Below are positions 23,810-28,561 of a stretch of 31,037 nt of DNA, in pieces. The stretch is from a virus. Taxonomy: Duplodnaviria; Caudoviricetes. Below the pieces are notes generated by a model. It was not told the origin of the DNA. It ran no database searches and was given only the letters and a program-made list of their open reading frames with translations. The stretch's first letter is position 1, and every line of letters begins with the position of its first letter. The position numbers were made by a program, and so were the translations under genes. The stretch is from IMG/VR virus record IMGVR_UViG_3300020042_008065, positions 1 through 31,037 of that record, one strand, 5' to 3'.

Positions 23810-24026
23810 TTTGTGGTGCCCTTTTTGTGAGTTCTGCGGCTTCACGCAGGGTCATGTCAGGGAATGTGTCAGTGAGATACTGACGATACTCAATCAAGGC
23901 GTTGTTGATCCAGGTATCAAATTGATGCCCTTTGTAGTGACTGCGAACATCAGCAACGTCATCAAACCTGCCGTCATGGGCTTTGCGAGTTGCGAACTCG
24001 TGAAACGCGATTGCTTGCTTGGACAT
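23802..24026 (-). CDS. Small early protein, 74 aa (MSKQAIAF...)
   Basis: AGGAG SD; first gene after promoter P2. Confidence 0.75.
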   Translation of the reverse strand: MSKQAIAFHEFATRKAHDGRFDDVADVRSHYKGHQFDTWINNALIEYRQYLTDTFPDMTLREAAELTKRAPQNV

Positions 24027-24085
24027 AGTGTCTCTCCTGTATAAACAACTCATTTTGCGATGTGCTTTTTGCTGTCTATGTGTGT

Positions 24086-24150
24086 ATTATATACGAAATT
24101 GCAATATTGGTCAAATCAGGCACTCTTGTGCCTGTTGTATTTTTACAACA
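24086..24150 (-). promoter_or_regulatory. Sigma70 early promoter P2 with hairpin and TGTTG-N8-CAACA palindrome
   Basis: TTGACC (24109-14)-17-TATAAT (24086-91); 7-bp hairpin at 24117-24134; palindrome at 24133-24150. Confidence 0.9.
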
Positions 24151-24155
24151 ACTTG

Positions 24156-24359
24156 TTAGATCAAGTCTTTGTTGTAGATTGCATTGTAAAGTTCATTGTT
24201 GATTTTAGTCACAGCCAATTCAGTAGCCTCAGACATATTTTCATAGTCTTCATTGCCAATGATATCTAAATGCAGACCAAACACAATCTCTTCAATTGCT
24301 GTAAGTTTAGCCACCAATTGTGCGTGTGTAAGTTCTGTGAGTGCTGTTGCGTTTTGCAT
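24156..24359 (-). CDS. Small early protein, 67 aa (MQNATALT...)
   Basis: AGGA SD; only gene between P1 and P2. Confidence 0.75.
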   Translation of the reverse strand: MQNATALTELTHAQLVAKLTAIEEIVFGLHLDIIGNEDYENMSEATELAVTKINNELYNAIYNKDLI

Positions 24360-24418
24360 AGTGTAGTTCCTGTATAAACAACTCATTTTGCTGTGTGCTT
24401 TTTGCTGTCTATGTGTGT

Positions 24419-24472
24419 ATTATAGCACTAGACGTCTTATTGGTCAAATCACAGTGTTGTTTTTATGCAACA
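24419..24472 (-). promoter_or_regulatory. Sigma70 early promoter P1 with TGTTG-N8-CAACA palindrome
   Basis: TTGACC (24442-47)-17-TATAAT (24419-24); palindrome at 24455-24472. Confidence 0.9.
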
Positions 24473-24623: not shown

Positions 24624-25178
24624 TCACCGGGTGATAGGCCGTTGCCATATTTGCCTGTTGTTGCGAAACCATCCCATGTGCTCACCTGCCAGGATGAATG
24701 TGTCAAGGTCTGCTTCTGTGTCCCAGCGTCTGCGGAATCCCTGCTGCTGTGCATGATAGGTCCAGAACTCAGGAGCCTGACAGTTGATGTGTCCCACGCC
24801 ACCTTGGCCTGGCTGTGCCGCTGACCAAACAACCCAGCCTCCAGGCTCACAGTTTTGCCACACACTATGAACCACCTGTGCTGACAGACTGTGGTCAATG
24901 TGTTCAGCCACTTCCAGACATATCACAACAGGTGCAGGTGCATGCACCTGCAGCAGATCCTGAGTGTGCACCAAGTCCGGACAAGGCTGTGGTTGTGTAA
25001 CATCATAGCCTTGAGCAGGTACACCTCTTGCACGAAGTTCTTGAACATAAACTCCTGTGCCTGCTCCTAGATCCACCACAGGTCCTGACCAACGCAGGTC
25101 AATCCACTGGGCCAAACGGCGTGCAAAAGGACGCTCTTCCTGATCCATTCGTGCATAATCAAAACTAGTGTTGCTCAT
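24624..25178 (-). CDS. Class I SAM-dependent methyltransferase, 184 aa
   Basis: VVDLGAGTG motif I, ICLEVAEHI and WSAA.PGQGG.GHINCQ; start reassigned to ATG 25178 (GGAGA SD, ATGA overlap). Confidence 0.88.
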   Translation of the reverse strand: MSNTSFDYARMDQEERPFARRLAQWIDLRWSGPVVDLGAGTGVYVQELRARGVPAQGYDVTQPQPCPDLVHTQDLLQVHAPAPVVICLEVAEHIDHSLSAQVVHSVWQNCEPGGWVVWSAAQPGQGGVGHINCQAPEFWTYHAQQQGFRRRWDTEADLDTFILAGEHMGWFRNNRQIWQRPITR

Positions 25179-25552
25179 TTGTTTGGTATCTCCACACCAT
25201 TGATGCTGTTGATCACTTCTCGTATGGTCATGCACAGTCTCCAGGTACGACCTTTGTTGTGACTCTGATCCATGCAGCGTGTGTGACCGCCTGAATCTGT
25301 GTCCCAGGCTTCTCTTGCTGCCCACACAGCTTCACGATTGAATGCTTGAAAATTGCCACGACATTCACGCTCCAGCATTTCCATGGCTTGAATTGTGTCA
25401 CTCCAGAATTCATTGCGTATTTCTGCTGCATTCAGTAGACCTTTCCAGATCATGCGATTGTCTGTTTCAATCGCACGTCCGGTGTCTTGAATTATGCCAT
25501 TCAAGAGATCTGTGATGGCTTCACAGTTTTTTATGCCTGCAACTAGACTCAT
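25175..25552 (-). CDS. Hypothetical protein, 125 aa
   Basis: ATGA-coupled to both neighbours. Confidence 0.7.
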   Translation of the reverse strand: MSLVAGIKNCEAITDLLNGIIQDTGRAIETDNRMIWKGLLNAAEIRNEFWSDTIQAMEMLERECRGNFQAFNREAVWAAREAWDTDSGGHTRCMDQSHNKGRTWRLCMTIREVINSINGVEIPNK

Positions 25553-26634
25553 AACTGCTCCCATCCGGTGCCTGAATACACATCTGTGATGGCAGCAAAC
25601 CAGGCTTCAAACTCTGGTGCCACTGATTCAAGACTGTATCTCATGCCACGCTCACGACAGGCTGAGGGTGATATGGTGTGTGCTGCCAGTATGGCATCAC
25701 GATATTCCCGCAAGGTGTGACACAGGAATCCTGTTTGGTCAGTTTGTATTTCAGCGAACGCACCAAAGTGCGGTGTGATTATGGGTGTGCCTGACAACAA
25801 GGCTTCCACCACAACACCACCAAATGGTTCCAGGTATGTGGTGGCAATGATCAAGGCTCTTGCATTGGCCATGAGCGTTCTTCGTTGTTCAGTGTCTGCA
25901 TAGCCCAGTTCCTCAACCCAGGGCGGTGTGTTGGTGTAGCCAAGATCACTCAAGCGTCCTTGCCCTGCTATTTTGAGGCGGTAGCCTGCGGCTTCACAGG
26001 CCTTGATACAAGTGGTAATGCCTTTGATCTCTGCTACTCTGCCCAGGAACAACACATAGTCTTGTTTGGTTTCCGTGTAGTCAAAGTCATCTGGATCAAA
26101 GTAGTTGGGTATCACCCAGGAATACCAGTTTTGTGGCGCAGCAGTGCCTTCCACAACTGCTCGCACAGCATGACTTTCATAGGCACGCCACTTGGCAAAG
26201 TGTCCTGAGGTGTAGCCAATGCCGGGCTCCACAGCAATCACGCCCAGTGTTTCTGCAAAGCGGGCCACTGACTGATGACCAAATCCCCAGGTGCACAACA
26301 GGAAGTCGCCCTTTTGTGCTCGCCGTTGTATCTCAGGAATCACACGACTGTTGTAGGTCACATTGGCATAGTCAAACACATTGTGCTTGAACTGATGTCT
26401 GCGCCAGTCATGTGAGCCATAGGCCTTTTCAAGCACAGCATTGTCAGTCACAGTGACATGTTCTGAACACACCACATCTGACGCCTCATGACCGTAGTGG
26501 ATCACTGTGTGTCCGCGATCAGTCATCATTTTGGCAAATTTCAACACCTTTTGTGTGTAAGCACAGGCCACATAATCTTTATGGGTTATGGTGTGCGGAA
26601 TGGCCAGCAAGTGGAATCTATATCGTTTTGTCAT
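25549..26634 (-). CDS. Glycosyltransferase, GT-B fold (GT4-like), 361 aa
   Basis: RGH.V, VIPNYFD, LFLGRV...KG and EPFG.V.VEALLSGTP.I (E-X7-E). Confidence 0.92.
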   Translation of the reverse strand: MTKRYRFHLLAIPHTITHKDYVACAYTQKVLKFAKMMTDRGHTVIHYGHEASDVVCSEHVTVTDNAVLEKAYGSHDWRRHQFKHNVFDYANVTYNSRVIPEIQRRAQKGDFLLCTWGFGHQSVARFAETLGVIAVEPGIGYTSGHFAKWRAYESHAVRAVVEGTAAPQNWYSWVIPNYFDPDDFDYTETKQDYVLFLGRVAEIKGITTCIKACEAAGYRLKIAGQGRLSDLGYTNTPPWVEELGYADTEQRRTLMANARALIIATTYLEPFGGVVVEALLSGTPIITPHFGAFAEIQTDQTGFLCHTLREYRDAILAAHTISPSACRERGMRYSLESVAPEFEAWFAAITDVYSGTGWEQL

Positions 26635-26962
26635 TGAGTTTCTTTCTGTCTAGTTTGATCTGTTGTTGTCGCTGATGAAATACCTCACGTGTGACCAGGT
26701 CCACATTGCTTACACTCCAGGGCAGTCGCCAGTTCTTTCTCATCAGCATGATACCGTCTGCTAGGCGACTTCTGCGGTGCCATTGATCTGCCCACACAGC
26801 TTCATACTGAGCAAATGTCAAGGCCCAGGTCTCTCCACGAAAGTGTGCCTGAGCCCGGCTTCTGCTCCAGGCAGTGTGCTGAGCATGACGTACAGGATCT
26901 GGACCTGTTTGCCACACATGCGGTCTTGGTCCACGGGGATAGTTGCCAGTTGTGGTTGTCAT
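26618..26962 (-). CDS. Degenerate HNH-like / nucleic-acid-binding protein, 114 aa, leaderless
   Basis: A..RG..W.LTF......W...W..R...M.R....PW...NV pattern; catalytic residues not evident; TAAATA-N4-ATG. Confidence 0.55.
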   Translation of the reverse strand: MTTTTGNYPRGPRPHVWQTGPDPVRHAQHTAWSRSRAQAHFRGETWALTFAQYEAVWADQWHRRSRLADGIMLMRKNWRLPWSVSNVDLVTREVFHQRQQQIKLDRKKLNDKTI

Positions 26963-27201
26963 GTTGTATTTAGCATATTACGATATCTTGTGTTATTTTG
27001 CAAGGTTTTTGATGCCGCGGGCCTGGCAGTTGTGATCCAGGGTATGTCTATCTCACGCAACACCTTTAATTCATCTTTGCCAAGCCATTTGAACCAGTGA
27101 CCGTGCGGAATACAAAACAGTCCCCAATGAGGTCCTCGCTTTTGTATATCACACGCACAACAGGAGTGATCTAGGGATTTTTTCTTGTGCTTTTTGGTCA
27201 T
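26959..27201 (-). CDS. Small basic Cys/His protein, 80 aa (MTKKHKKK...)
   Basis: AAGGA SD before ATG 27201; H..C.C...H..L.C..H..W.KW is a possible Zn site. Confidence 0.65.
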   Translation of the reverse strand: MTKKHKKKSLDHSCCACDIQKRGPHWGLFCIPHGHWFKWLGKDELKVLREIDIPWITTARPAASKTLQNNTRYRNMLNTT

Positions 27202-27220
27202 GTGCGAGTTCCTTAAGAGA

Positions 27221-28049
27221 TCCACTACAATAGGGTATAGTTGTGTTGTTGTTATTTCTTTTCAAAATTAACTCTAAATCCAGTTCTCTCAAGAACTCTT
27301 GCACTCAAAGAGGTGTGATCTATCTCACTCTCACAACTCCATCCATCATGTTCCAGAAAATGCCGGTTATTGGTTTCACAAAGAAACTCACGAATCTCAT
27401 TGAGAACCTGTCTTTCTAGATCAAAATACACACTCCACTTCTGACGACTTGAAATAGCAAGCATTCGTTCACGATTGTTTTTGTCTTGCTTGCTTCGTCG
27501 TGACATTGTGGGCTTGATGTAATCCCAACAGGTCTTTATGTCTGCTCGTAATTGAGTCATGTACTTGTGCTGTTGTAAGAAACGGATTCGTGCCACATCT
27601 CCTGACAGCAATTTGTAAATCTCAGTTGTGGGGTTCGCACTTAACTTTGCCCCTGCCAGCAAGGCATTGATGATGCGTTTGATAATTTCTGGATCTACAT
27701 CTGCTTGCTGTGCAATTTGTTTGCGGATGCTTTGGCGATCACGCAAGTAATCACGCAGGGCAAATAGATACAGATCCATAGGCCCTTGCTGCCATTTGCT
27801 ATTGTGGACGACTTGTTGTATTTGTTGTGCGTGTTGATGTATCAAGGTCATAGCACAGCATTCAACATCATAGTGATGTTTGTATCCGTTTTGCTCCAGC
27901 ACAGTTTTTTTGTAATTACGTTTGAAGTTCTGTAGCGGATGCCAAAGACGGCTACTTTGATCATTGTAAGCAAAACTGCCTGTGTTGAGTTCTGACTGAT
28001 ACTCTGCTTGAGCAACTTCCACTACAATAGGGTATAGTTGTGTTGTTGT
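27221..28049 (+). repeat. 32-bp exact direct repeat tccactacaatagggtatagttgtgttgttgt (27221-27252, 28018-28049)
   Basis: Read directly; one copy is at the stop codon and one is inside the 362-aa gene. Confidence 0.92.
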
Positions 28050-28340
28050 GTTATTTTTTATCAACCCAATGGATTCGCAAAGATCGTCAACTCCTGTTTG
28101 ATTTAACACATACTCTTTGCACTTGCCTGTGTCTTTGCTCCAGTGACTGTTGGTCTCAATCAGCAGTTGTTGCCGCAGATACCTGCAGAGATCATTTCGC
28201 TGACTACCAAACCACTTGTCAATGTATCTTGTGCTCCACTGTTGTGATTTGGTCGTGCTGATTACTCCTGAAGCAAAGCCAATGGCTCGCCGGATTCGTC
28301 GTTGGACCCTGGGGTCACTAAAGTTGGGTGTGTACGCCAT
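27252..28340 (-). CDS. Minimal family-A polymerase-fold protein (TV-Pol-like putative primase-polymerase/replication protein), 362 aa
   Basis: Ordered motifs RLWHPLQN, YDVECCAMTL (motif A Asp), R..IA.......K...NALLAG (motif B), YF.LER and LEHDG (motif C); no exonuclease domain; basic N-terminal domain. Confidence 0.7.
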   Translation of the reverse strand: MAYTPNFSDPRVQRRIRRAIGFASGVISTTKSQQWSTRYIDKWFGSQRNDLCRYLRQQLLIETNSHWSKDTGKCKEYVLNQTGVDDLCESIGLIKNNTTTQLYPIVVEVAQAEYQSELNTGSFAYNDQSSRLWHPLQNFKRNYKKTVLEQNGYKHHYDVECCAMTLIHQHAQQIQQVVHNSKWQQGPMDLYLFALRDYLRDRQSIRKQIAQQADVDPEIIKRIINALLAGAKLSANPTTEIYKLLSGDVARIRFLQQHKYMTQLRADIKTCWDYIKPTMSRRSKQDKNNRERMLAISSRQKWSVYFDLERQVLNEIREFLCETNNRHFLEHDGWSCESEIDHTSLSARVLERTGFRVNFEKK

Positions 28341-28358
28341 TTGCTGCTCCTATACTGT

Positions 28359-28387
28359 ATTATATAGTATTGTAGTGGAAAAATCAA
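28359..28387 (-). promoter_or_regulatory. Sigma70 promoter of the polymerase-like gene, overlapped by an inverted partial copy of the 32-bp repeat
   Basis: TTGATT (28382-87)-17-TATAAT (28359-64); 28368-28380 tattgtagtggaa is the reverse complement of 28017-28029. Confidence 0.8.
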
Positions 28388-28409
28388 GGTTTAACGGCAA
28401 AATTCAGTC

Positions 28410-28430
28410 AAAAAAAAGCCTGCAGCAGGC
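28410..28430 (-). terminator. Intrinsic terminator
   Basis: GCCTG-CTG-CAGGC followed by T8 on the minus strand. Confidence 0.8.
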
Positions 28431-28551
28431 AGGGTGTTGGAGCAGGACGGGGTGTGTTTTTATAGGAACCAAATATCAGCGTGACATTGTGATTGGACTC
28501 TTCCCGTTGAGTCTGCGTTTAGATCACTTGTGAATGATCCCTTGCTCCAAC
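28410..28551 (-). ncRNA. Candidate structured ncRNA (~140 nt), multibranch
   Basis: Starts 4 nt after TAAATA; 5' GUUGGAGCA pairs with 3' UGCUCCAAC; three internal hairpins, two with minus-strand G-U pairs; ends at the terminator. Confidence 0.7.
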
Positions 28552-28555
28552 TGAG

Positions 28556-28561
28556 TATTTA
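28556..28561 (-). promoter_or_regulatory. TAAATA putative late promoter of the ncRNA
   Basis: Same N4 spacing to the first paired base as to the ATG of the leaderless genes. Confidence 0.6.

Follow-up and report, generated by a model that had tools for sequence, protein, structure and literature searches.

The window, by which we mean the whole stretch of DNA that was analysed, corresponds to a viral record 31,037 bases long with an estimated completeness of 100%, and the sequencing runs containing it are lake and freshwater metagenomes. The terminase, portal, capsid, tape-measure and tail genes are all located on its minus strand. The locus under study holds a gene for a 362-aa polymerase-like protein, two full copies of a 22-bp DNA site, a promoter, a small neighbouring gene and a structured RNA (Table 1). 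A scan of 44 ORFs of the window revealed neither a helicase nor a primase nor an SSB, as the preliminary description of this DNA had stated. The 14 near-complete relatives likewise gave no helicase, primase, DNA polymerase or SSB when 127 representative ORFs were compared with PHROGs (ORFs of 130–800 aa not shared with the window, shorter ones lying outside the scan); 2 of the 127 were AAA-like. The polymerase gene was present as a single copy in all 26 virus records having it. Methyltransferase and GT4 glycosyltransferase genes are located downstream of the polymerase module (24624–26634, minus strand). A 68-bp leader is duplicated at 24024–24091 and 24357–24424 (93% identical), and each copy comprises a strong TTGACC-17-TATAAT promoter followed by a small ORF (76 or 83 aa); these leaders are probable early promoter cassettes.

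Table 1. Features of the polymerase locus, in coordinates of the window.
Feature	Position	Strand	Basis or remark
Small His/Cys protein (80 aa)	26959..27201	-	Beside the polymerase gene in 31/73 clusters
Tail 22-bp site, at the stop codon	27217..27238	+	GGG at 27233-27235
Gene for the 362-aa protein: N-terminal domain and minimal PolA-fold (TV-Pol-like) polymerase	27252..28340	-	Motifs, model, fold matches
Polymerase domain, residues 97-362	27255..28052	-	Fold match; invariant R131, D158, R206, K221, H331-D332-G333
Internal 22-bp site, in the domain linker	28014..28035	+	GGG at 28030-28032; synthesis is predicted to start there and to run toward higher coordinates, opposite to the gene
N-terminal domain, residues 1-92	28065..28340	-	Helix-strand-helix-helix-hairpin-helix order in the full model
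Codons 46-49 (SQRN), predicted base-reading turn opening helix 50-59	28194..28205	-	Co-variation with site bases
Sigma70-like promoter TTGATT-17-TATAAT with a 12-bp half-site (28368-28379) in the spacer	28359..28387	-	Half-site is an inverted copy of part of the repeat
Terminator-like hairpin with a T run, separating the RNA from the polymerase promoter	28410..28433	-	
Structured RNA folding as a four-way junction, probably with a 5-bp pseudoknot	28436..28551	-	3' region of the upstream 99-aa gene

Motifs of family-A polymerases were found in the 362-aa ORF in the order RLWHPLQN, YDVECC, K..NALLAGA and LEHDG, and the full-length model, built from a 115-sequence alignment, had a pLDDT of 93 and contained no exonuclease domain; both points had been read correctly from the sequence beforehand. 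A comparison of the model with PolA, T7 RNAP and TV-Pol had also been proposed. Residues 97–362 matched family-A polymerases, and the top Foldseek hits among the matches listed were all family-A DNA polymerases. In the VIA structure comparison, Pol nu gave Z 11.7 (rmsd 4.5, 225 aligned), Klenow Z 11.5 and T7 RNAP Z 9.6. Among matches to viral models, a helicase/primase/polymerase of a Qinghai Lake virophage ranked 5 and a Zamilon replication protein ranked 8. The modelled protein thus has the fold of a minimal, TV-Pol-type family-A polymerase.

To define the family, 130 loci were pooled from the window, IMG/VR and metagenomes, 114 of which were full-length and fell into 73 clusters at 90% identity. 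Across the 73 clusters, R131, Q137, D158, R206, K221, G230, E309 and H331-D332-G333 were invariant. The motif A and C aspartates of the palm, whose absence had been named in advance as a refutation of the preliminary reading, were thus retained in 73/73 clusters (D158 on strand 155–159, D332 on hairpin 327–336). R131, also present in 73/73, lies on a beta-hairpin (126–133) that is preceded in the model by helices 99–113 and 115–120. The helix preceding K221 carries the conserved residues R/K202 and R206, and a helical fingers insert is present; position 217 (K221-4) is variable, and Arg is not among its common residues. Position D158+5 (A163) is Ala in 68 of the 73 clusters and Cys in 4, and N225 is kept in 63/73. 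A163 and N225 were equated with E710 and F762 by motif spacing rather than by superposition, which puts A163 at the putative steric-gate (E710) position. Motif C reads HDG, and the third carboxylate is missing. A proofreading nuclease was found neither fused nor linked in the model, the window ORFs or the neighbourhoods.

The family is large: when clustered at 50% identity, it comprises 1742 clusters at a cut-off of E ≤ 1e-3 and 462 at E ≤ 1e-30. It carries no Pfam, PHROG or NCBIfam name. No useful match to the protein emerged from sequence searches of Pfam, PHROGs, NCBIfam, PDB, GenBank phages or plasmids, and a literature search whose coverage left out most subscription journals returned no paper on the family or its site. 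Helicase-fused long forms were absent among the long proteins in a weak search. One bacterial genome bin holds a family member (L131 3965–5095) and a distant 596-aa relative (L180 5539–7329); each gene adjoins a tyrosine-integrase-like gene, named from sequence, and two similar accessory genes. The repeat pair described below was not found at either of these two loci.

A perfect 32-bp direct repeat connects the stop codon of the gene (27221–27252) with its inter-domain linker (28018–28049). Exact matches to its 12-bp part occur three times in the window, namely in the two repeats and, inverted, in the promoter. The protein had been described as having three cognate sites; the gene-internal and stop-codon copies are full sites, but the promoter copy is only a half-site. 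Site positions were numbered on the gene strand, with 0 as the last C of CCC. A near-identical linker–tail pair was found in 46 of the 69 testable clusters, the window counted, and 4 of these pairs are inverted (a score of at least 14 in 39/54 clusters and of at least 26 in 7 of the other 15, with 4 clusters left out for short tails). With shuffled tails, a score of 14 was reached in 0.09% of trials. The co-occurrence of the internal and 3' repeats in homologues, a check suggested earlier, was therefore observed in most testable clusters. Within a locus, identity ranged from 0.7 to 1.0 between −5 and +16 (37 aligned pairs); conservation has a sharp right edge and fades on the left across a G-poor tract (4.7% G). 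Read antisense to the gene, the site consists of a 16-bp upstream part, then GGGTAT and a C-poor tract.

A profile of the site matched at the linker or tail in 63/73 clusters, 37 of which were the training set, and few matches were found elsewhere in the flanks. Many distant members retain the tail copy alone; the tail site is the more widely kept copy and the likely origin. No site was found in 6/73 clusters or in the bacterial member L131, and the CCC is missing from a clade comprising at least 5 clusters. In the opposite direction, a search with a degenerate pattern matched 33 stretches on 20 IMG/VR contigs, and 31 of them have the polymerase gene within 1.5 kb. Of the remaining two, one is truncated by a contig end but has the usual Zn-protein gene following it, and the other does not fit the rule. 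At L188 1501–1523, a site match is followed by a partial second copy, and no polymerase gene lies within 1.5 kb. The preliminary first choice, a putative origin-binding primase/polymerase initiator with cognate DNA sites, is thus strongly supported on comparative grounds by a coupling that runs both ways (46/69 clusters and 31/33 stretches), together with the residue–base code given below.

The two copies of a locus were 0.84 alike, versus 0.71 and 0.68 to the nearest relative, and the left tract was 0.73 alike within a locus versus 0.60 and 0.54. The concerted evolution of the left tract points either to gene conversion or to a product sequence that the copies have in common. Tandem duplications of about 50–80 bp carrying the site were observed in the tails of L020, L028, L032, L055, L058 and L066, with up to three copies in the L055 tail, and tandem site duplications were present in the linkers of L069 and L012. 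The tail site of L041, L044, L121 and L125 is inverted relative to the linker copy, an arrangement that would give divergent priming, and in L026 the second full site is not in the linker but upstream of the gene (−249 from the start). The idea that the direct repeats bound an excisable polymerase cassette was considered and rejected: no joints were detected in 4 contig sets, and there was no strong domain swapping.

The secondary structure of residues 1–92 in the full model points to a winged-helix topology. Modelled alone from a single sequence, the domain was poorly predicted (pLDDT 65), and its fold matches were only to helical repeats (Z ≤ 5.6); profile, atlas and fold searches, the latter run on this poor model, gave it no name. 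When all protein columns were compared with the site allele in 37 loci, residues 48 and 46 ranked top, with the allele scattered on the tree. In 60 loci, the best columns were 46/48 for base +8, 49 for +9 and 48 for +10. R/K46 was found in 8/8 loci with C+8 and in 0/52 of the others, R/K48 in 15/16 loci with G+8 and in 1/44 of the others, and N49 in 38/39 loci with T+9 and in 1/21 of the others. At base +3, W67 occurred solely with T and Y67 solely with G. Pairings of Arg or Lys with guanine and of Asn with adenine are textbook base contacts.

In phylogenetically independent pairs on supported branches, the residue–base rules held in the same direction (median p 0.008, 0.03 and 0.004); the W67–T(+3) rule had too few independent pairs (p 0.25). 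The rules for residues 48 and 49 also stood on a polymerase-only tree. Among these rules, the residue-48 lead alone preceded the view of the 23 held-out loci, and those for residues 46 and 49 were set after both training and held-out loci had been seen. The neighbouring residues 47 and 50 do not follow the site bases; linkage by recombination could account for some part of the code, although these two residues do not track the bases. Two further signals were discarded: the high co-variation of residues 5, 9 and 11 is an artefact of near-invariant columns, and the codon of residue 105 belongs to the internal site. Because the N-terminal domain appears to co-evolve base by base with the site, the protein very probably binds the 22-bp site through this domain, and the code is the strongest evidence that the domain reads it.

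The promoter half-site lacks the GGG part. It was exact in 2/33 loci, a third locus having a comparably placed copy with 2 mismatches, and the copy over the promoter, described earlier as part of the module, is therefore lineage-specific. In the sister phage L133, the same promoter without the half-site drives another gene. A family-wide promoter operator was rejected on the same count of 2/33 exact loci and on 4 extra half-site matches versus 1.7 expected. In the lineage of the window, the half-site is likely an autorepression operator, not a family trait.

The 80-aa protein encoded beside the polymerase likely binds Zn, as judged from its His and Cys residues. Its gene adjoins the polymerase gene in 31/73 clusters, a count made after 7 ORFs of another family were taken out of its cluster, and was found in 7/15 near-complete genomes, each time adjoining the polymerase gene. 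Its product, overlooked in the preliminary description, is a candidate partner of the polymerase, a better one than the RNA, and looks optional in that role. The tail repeat is in frame with this gene (26959–27252, minus strand), so that an inter-repeat deletion would fuse the N-terminal domain to the Zn protein; no such joint was seen in the contig sets, and the frame is not conserved in relatives.

The RNA upstream of the polymerase gene had been placed directly next to it and within the same compact module. It does fold (z −3.8 for 28434–28553 in the window), but a terminator-like hairpin and the promoter lie between the two. A homologue in L133 (1469–1594) takes the same fold (z −3.2) and precedes a different gene. 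An 11-pair stem closes the RNA, an unpaired linker is conserved, and all 33 named pairs are present in both RNAs, with one two-sided change in the pseudoknot, which carries no statistical weight in two sequences. No Rfam match was obtained. Of three covariance models, two were set aside because their structures were incorrect; the two-sequence RNA model, of low sensitivity, matched the window and L133 only among 93 sources (843 kb), so that the RNA was detected at no other polymerase locus when its co-occurrence was checked as proposed. Of 14 pattern matches, 1 was a real homologue, and parts of the RNA were observed on other contigs with different flanks. In 33/58 homologous loci, a gene ends no more than 60 nt upstream of the polymerase gene. 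Since the model matches only the window and a sister phage in which another gene follows, and since 33/58 loci have a gene end so close, the RNA is likely a separate element of the upstream transcription unit, outside the polymerase module, where it may serve as a ribozyme or to stabilise the transcript.

A primase-polymerase function was predicted for TV-Pols in 2008 (Iyer, Abhiman, Aravind; PMC2579912), Sputnik V13 being a founding member (PMC2579912). The protein shares with them a minimal superfamily-A core, the hairpin Arg, two palm Asp, the lack of a nuclease and an occurrence on mobile DNA (PMC2579912); in addition, L131 adjoins a tyrosine integrase, and the 596-aa integrase-linked relative is matched by the family profile (probability 96%). 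In contrast to TV-Pol loci, no D5 helicase, resolvase or integrase was seen at the phage loci studied here, and the N-terminal domain has a beta-hairpin, whereas that of TV-Pols was predicted to be all-helical (PMC2579912). The main text of PMC2579912 holds no cognate site or recognition code. Because the literal RxxxK fails here, we file the protein, which is TV-Pol-like, next to the TV-Pol family and not inside it, on a comparison with that main text, whose supplementary alignment may list such proteins.

By 2020, according to the portions of PMC7581432 covered, CCPol of SCCmec was the sole TV-Pol tested; it needs a partner, MP, and makes DNA. CCPol–MP likewise comprises an A-family polymerase without exonuclease that primes de novo at an origin beside its own operon (passages of PMC7581432 and PMC10061031), and its preference for a purine start opposite C (PMC7581432, same portions) is likened to the GGG start predicted here. 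CCPol differs in that it makes DNA, keeps E710/F762 and needs MP, a predicted OB fold, whereas the gate is Ala in the present family (portions of PMC7581432 and PMC10061031). The CCPol origin is recognised by the Cch2 helicase, as these portions describe it, whereas recognition here maps to the N-terminal domain of the polymerase by co-variation, and no helicase was found. The ColE2/RepA-PFP class C initiators also carry primase and DNA-binding domains in one protein and have no element helicase, and their origin lies at or after the 3' end of the gene, as it appears to do here by conservation and co-variation (PMC5304414, in excerpt). They differ in being plasmid-borne and in having a catalytic primase-PriCT module with an HTH instead of a PolA fold, and a second, linker-borne copy of the site is not described for ColE2 in the excerpt of PMC5304414.

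With T7-type RNA polymerases the protein shares the superfamily fold and the build of its site, in which a binding part precedes a GGG start and the whole covers almost the same positions (T7 promoter −17 to +6, in the part of PMC7668259 covered). In contrast to T7, the genome has two full sites, both antisense in the polymerase's own gene, and none drives phage genes. T7-type enzymes are of about 880 aa, versus 362 aa here, and recognise their promoters by a specificity loop, where the present protein would use a small N-terminal domain.

Because of the T7-like layout of the site, the purine start of CCPol, the lack of replication genes in relatives and the ColE2 parallel, we favour a site-specific primase-initiator that uses host enzymes. 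On balance, the protein is probably a one-protein, origin-specific initiator that works like ColE2 Rep but has a PolA fold. The N-terminal domain would dock at −8 to −10 with its wing near −3, the AT-rich, strand-biased tract beyond the GGG would open, and the palm would start with a purine opposite template C, so that the primer likely begins at the GGG of the site; we infer both the direction of synthesis and the start base from the layout of the site. Since the steric gate is Ala, rNTPs would probably be used, and there is a modest preference for RNA rather than DNA as product. Host polymerase and host replisome loading would then extend the primer, as in ColE2, and in the lineage of the window the promoter half-site would give autorepression. 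That the predicted enzyme alone could carry out promoter-specific de novo RNA synthesis on double-stranded DNA, as a T7-RNAP-like primase of about 40% the size with a three-residue code, is a good deal more doubtful. A ColE2-like origin would not need two sites in the same direction; the second could provide another place for priming, serve in copy control or direct antisense synthesis across the 5' end of the gene. In 12/15 genomes the gene strand shows a positive GC skew, which does not support one-way antisense synthesis. Further points against the favoured reading are the clade lacking the CCC, the clusters in which no site was found, the missing Arg at K221-4 and the different gene at this position in L133, whose contig is only 37% complete.

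Other readings of these data were weighed. The conserved block from −16 to +6 around the GGG, which is near the span of the T7 promoter, the Ala gate, the HDG motif C and the T7 RNAP match would also suit a miniature promoter-specific RNA polymerase whose sites are promoters for antisense RNA over its own gene, with a role in regulation or interference. However, no other site copies lie before any gene of the 31-kb genome, both sites oppose its gene direction, Tyr is missing at K221+8 (by spacing, presumably the place of T7 Y639), and the genomes would be left without a recognisable replication gene; we consider such an enzyme unlikely. A DNA primase-polymerase dependent on the neighbouring Zn protein for priming, as CCPol primes solely with MP, would explain why the two genes adjoin in the clusters and near-complete genomes counted above. 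This proposal is improbable given that the Zn-protein gene was undetected in 8/15 near-complete genomes, that a His/Cys-rich partner differs from a predicted OB fold and that the dNTP-choice residues of CCPol are replaced by A163 and N225.

The module could instead be dispensable for phage replication, as a selfish or exchangeable cassette whose function is to copy itself or to promote recombination among phages. Another gene takes its place in L133, a contig that is only 37% complete; the module occurs with at least 2 different virion modules and beside a tyrosine integrase in the bacterial bin, and both the likeness of copies within a locus and the tandem tail sites would be expected of such an element. 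Against it, deletion or circle joints were absent from the 4 contig sets, in which contigs drop rare forms, the N-terminal and polymerase domains mostly co-evolve, the gene is always single-copy, and its carriers have no other replication gene, so that there is little probability in this account. Very little indeed is left for a retron-like polymerase with the upstream RNA as template or cofactor, which would account for the adjacent RNA and its 11-pair closing stem in the window; at other polymerase loci the low-sensitivity, two-sequence model did not detect the RNA, more than half of the homologous loci leave no room for it, and in L133 it precedes a different gene.

A primase-initiator of the kind favoured here would explain how replication starts in many phages of 26–39 kb without recognisable replication genes, and its PolA fold would be convergent with ColE2. 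For tests of TV-Pols, the family offers a template that is defined, a start base that is predicted and a code with built-in specificity controls. If the more doubtful reading as a T7-RNAP-like, RNA-synthesising primase were true, the protein would be a present-day model for the TV-Pol ancestor from which T7-type polymerases arose; it would also underlie a widespread phage replicon that needs no helicase, and the family would supply naturally orthogonal polymerase–site pairs.
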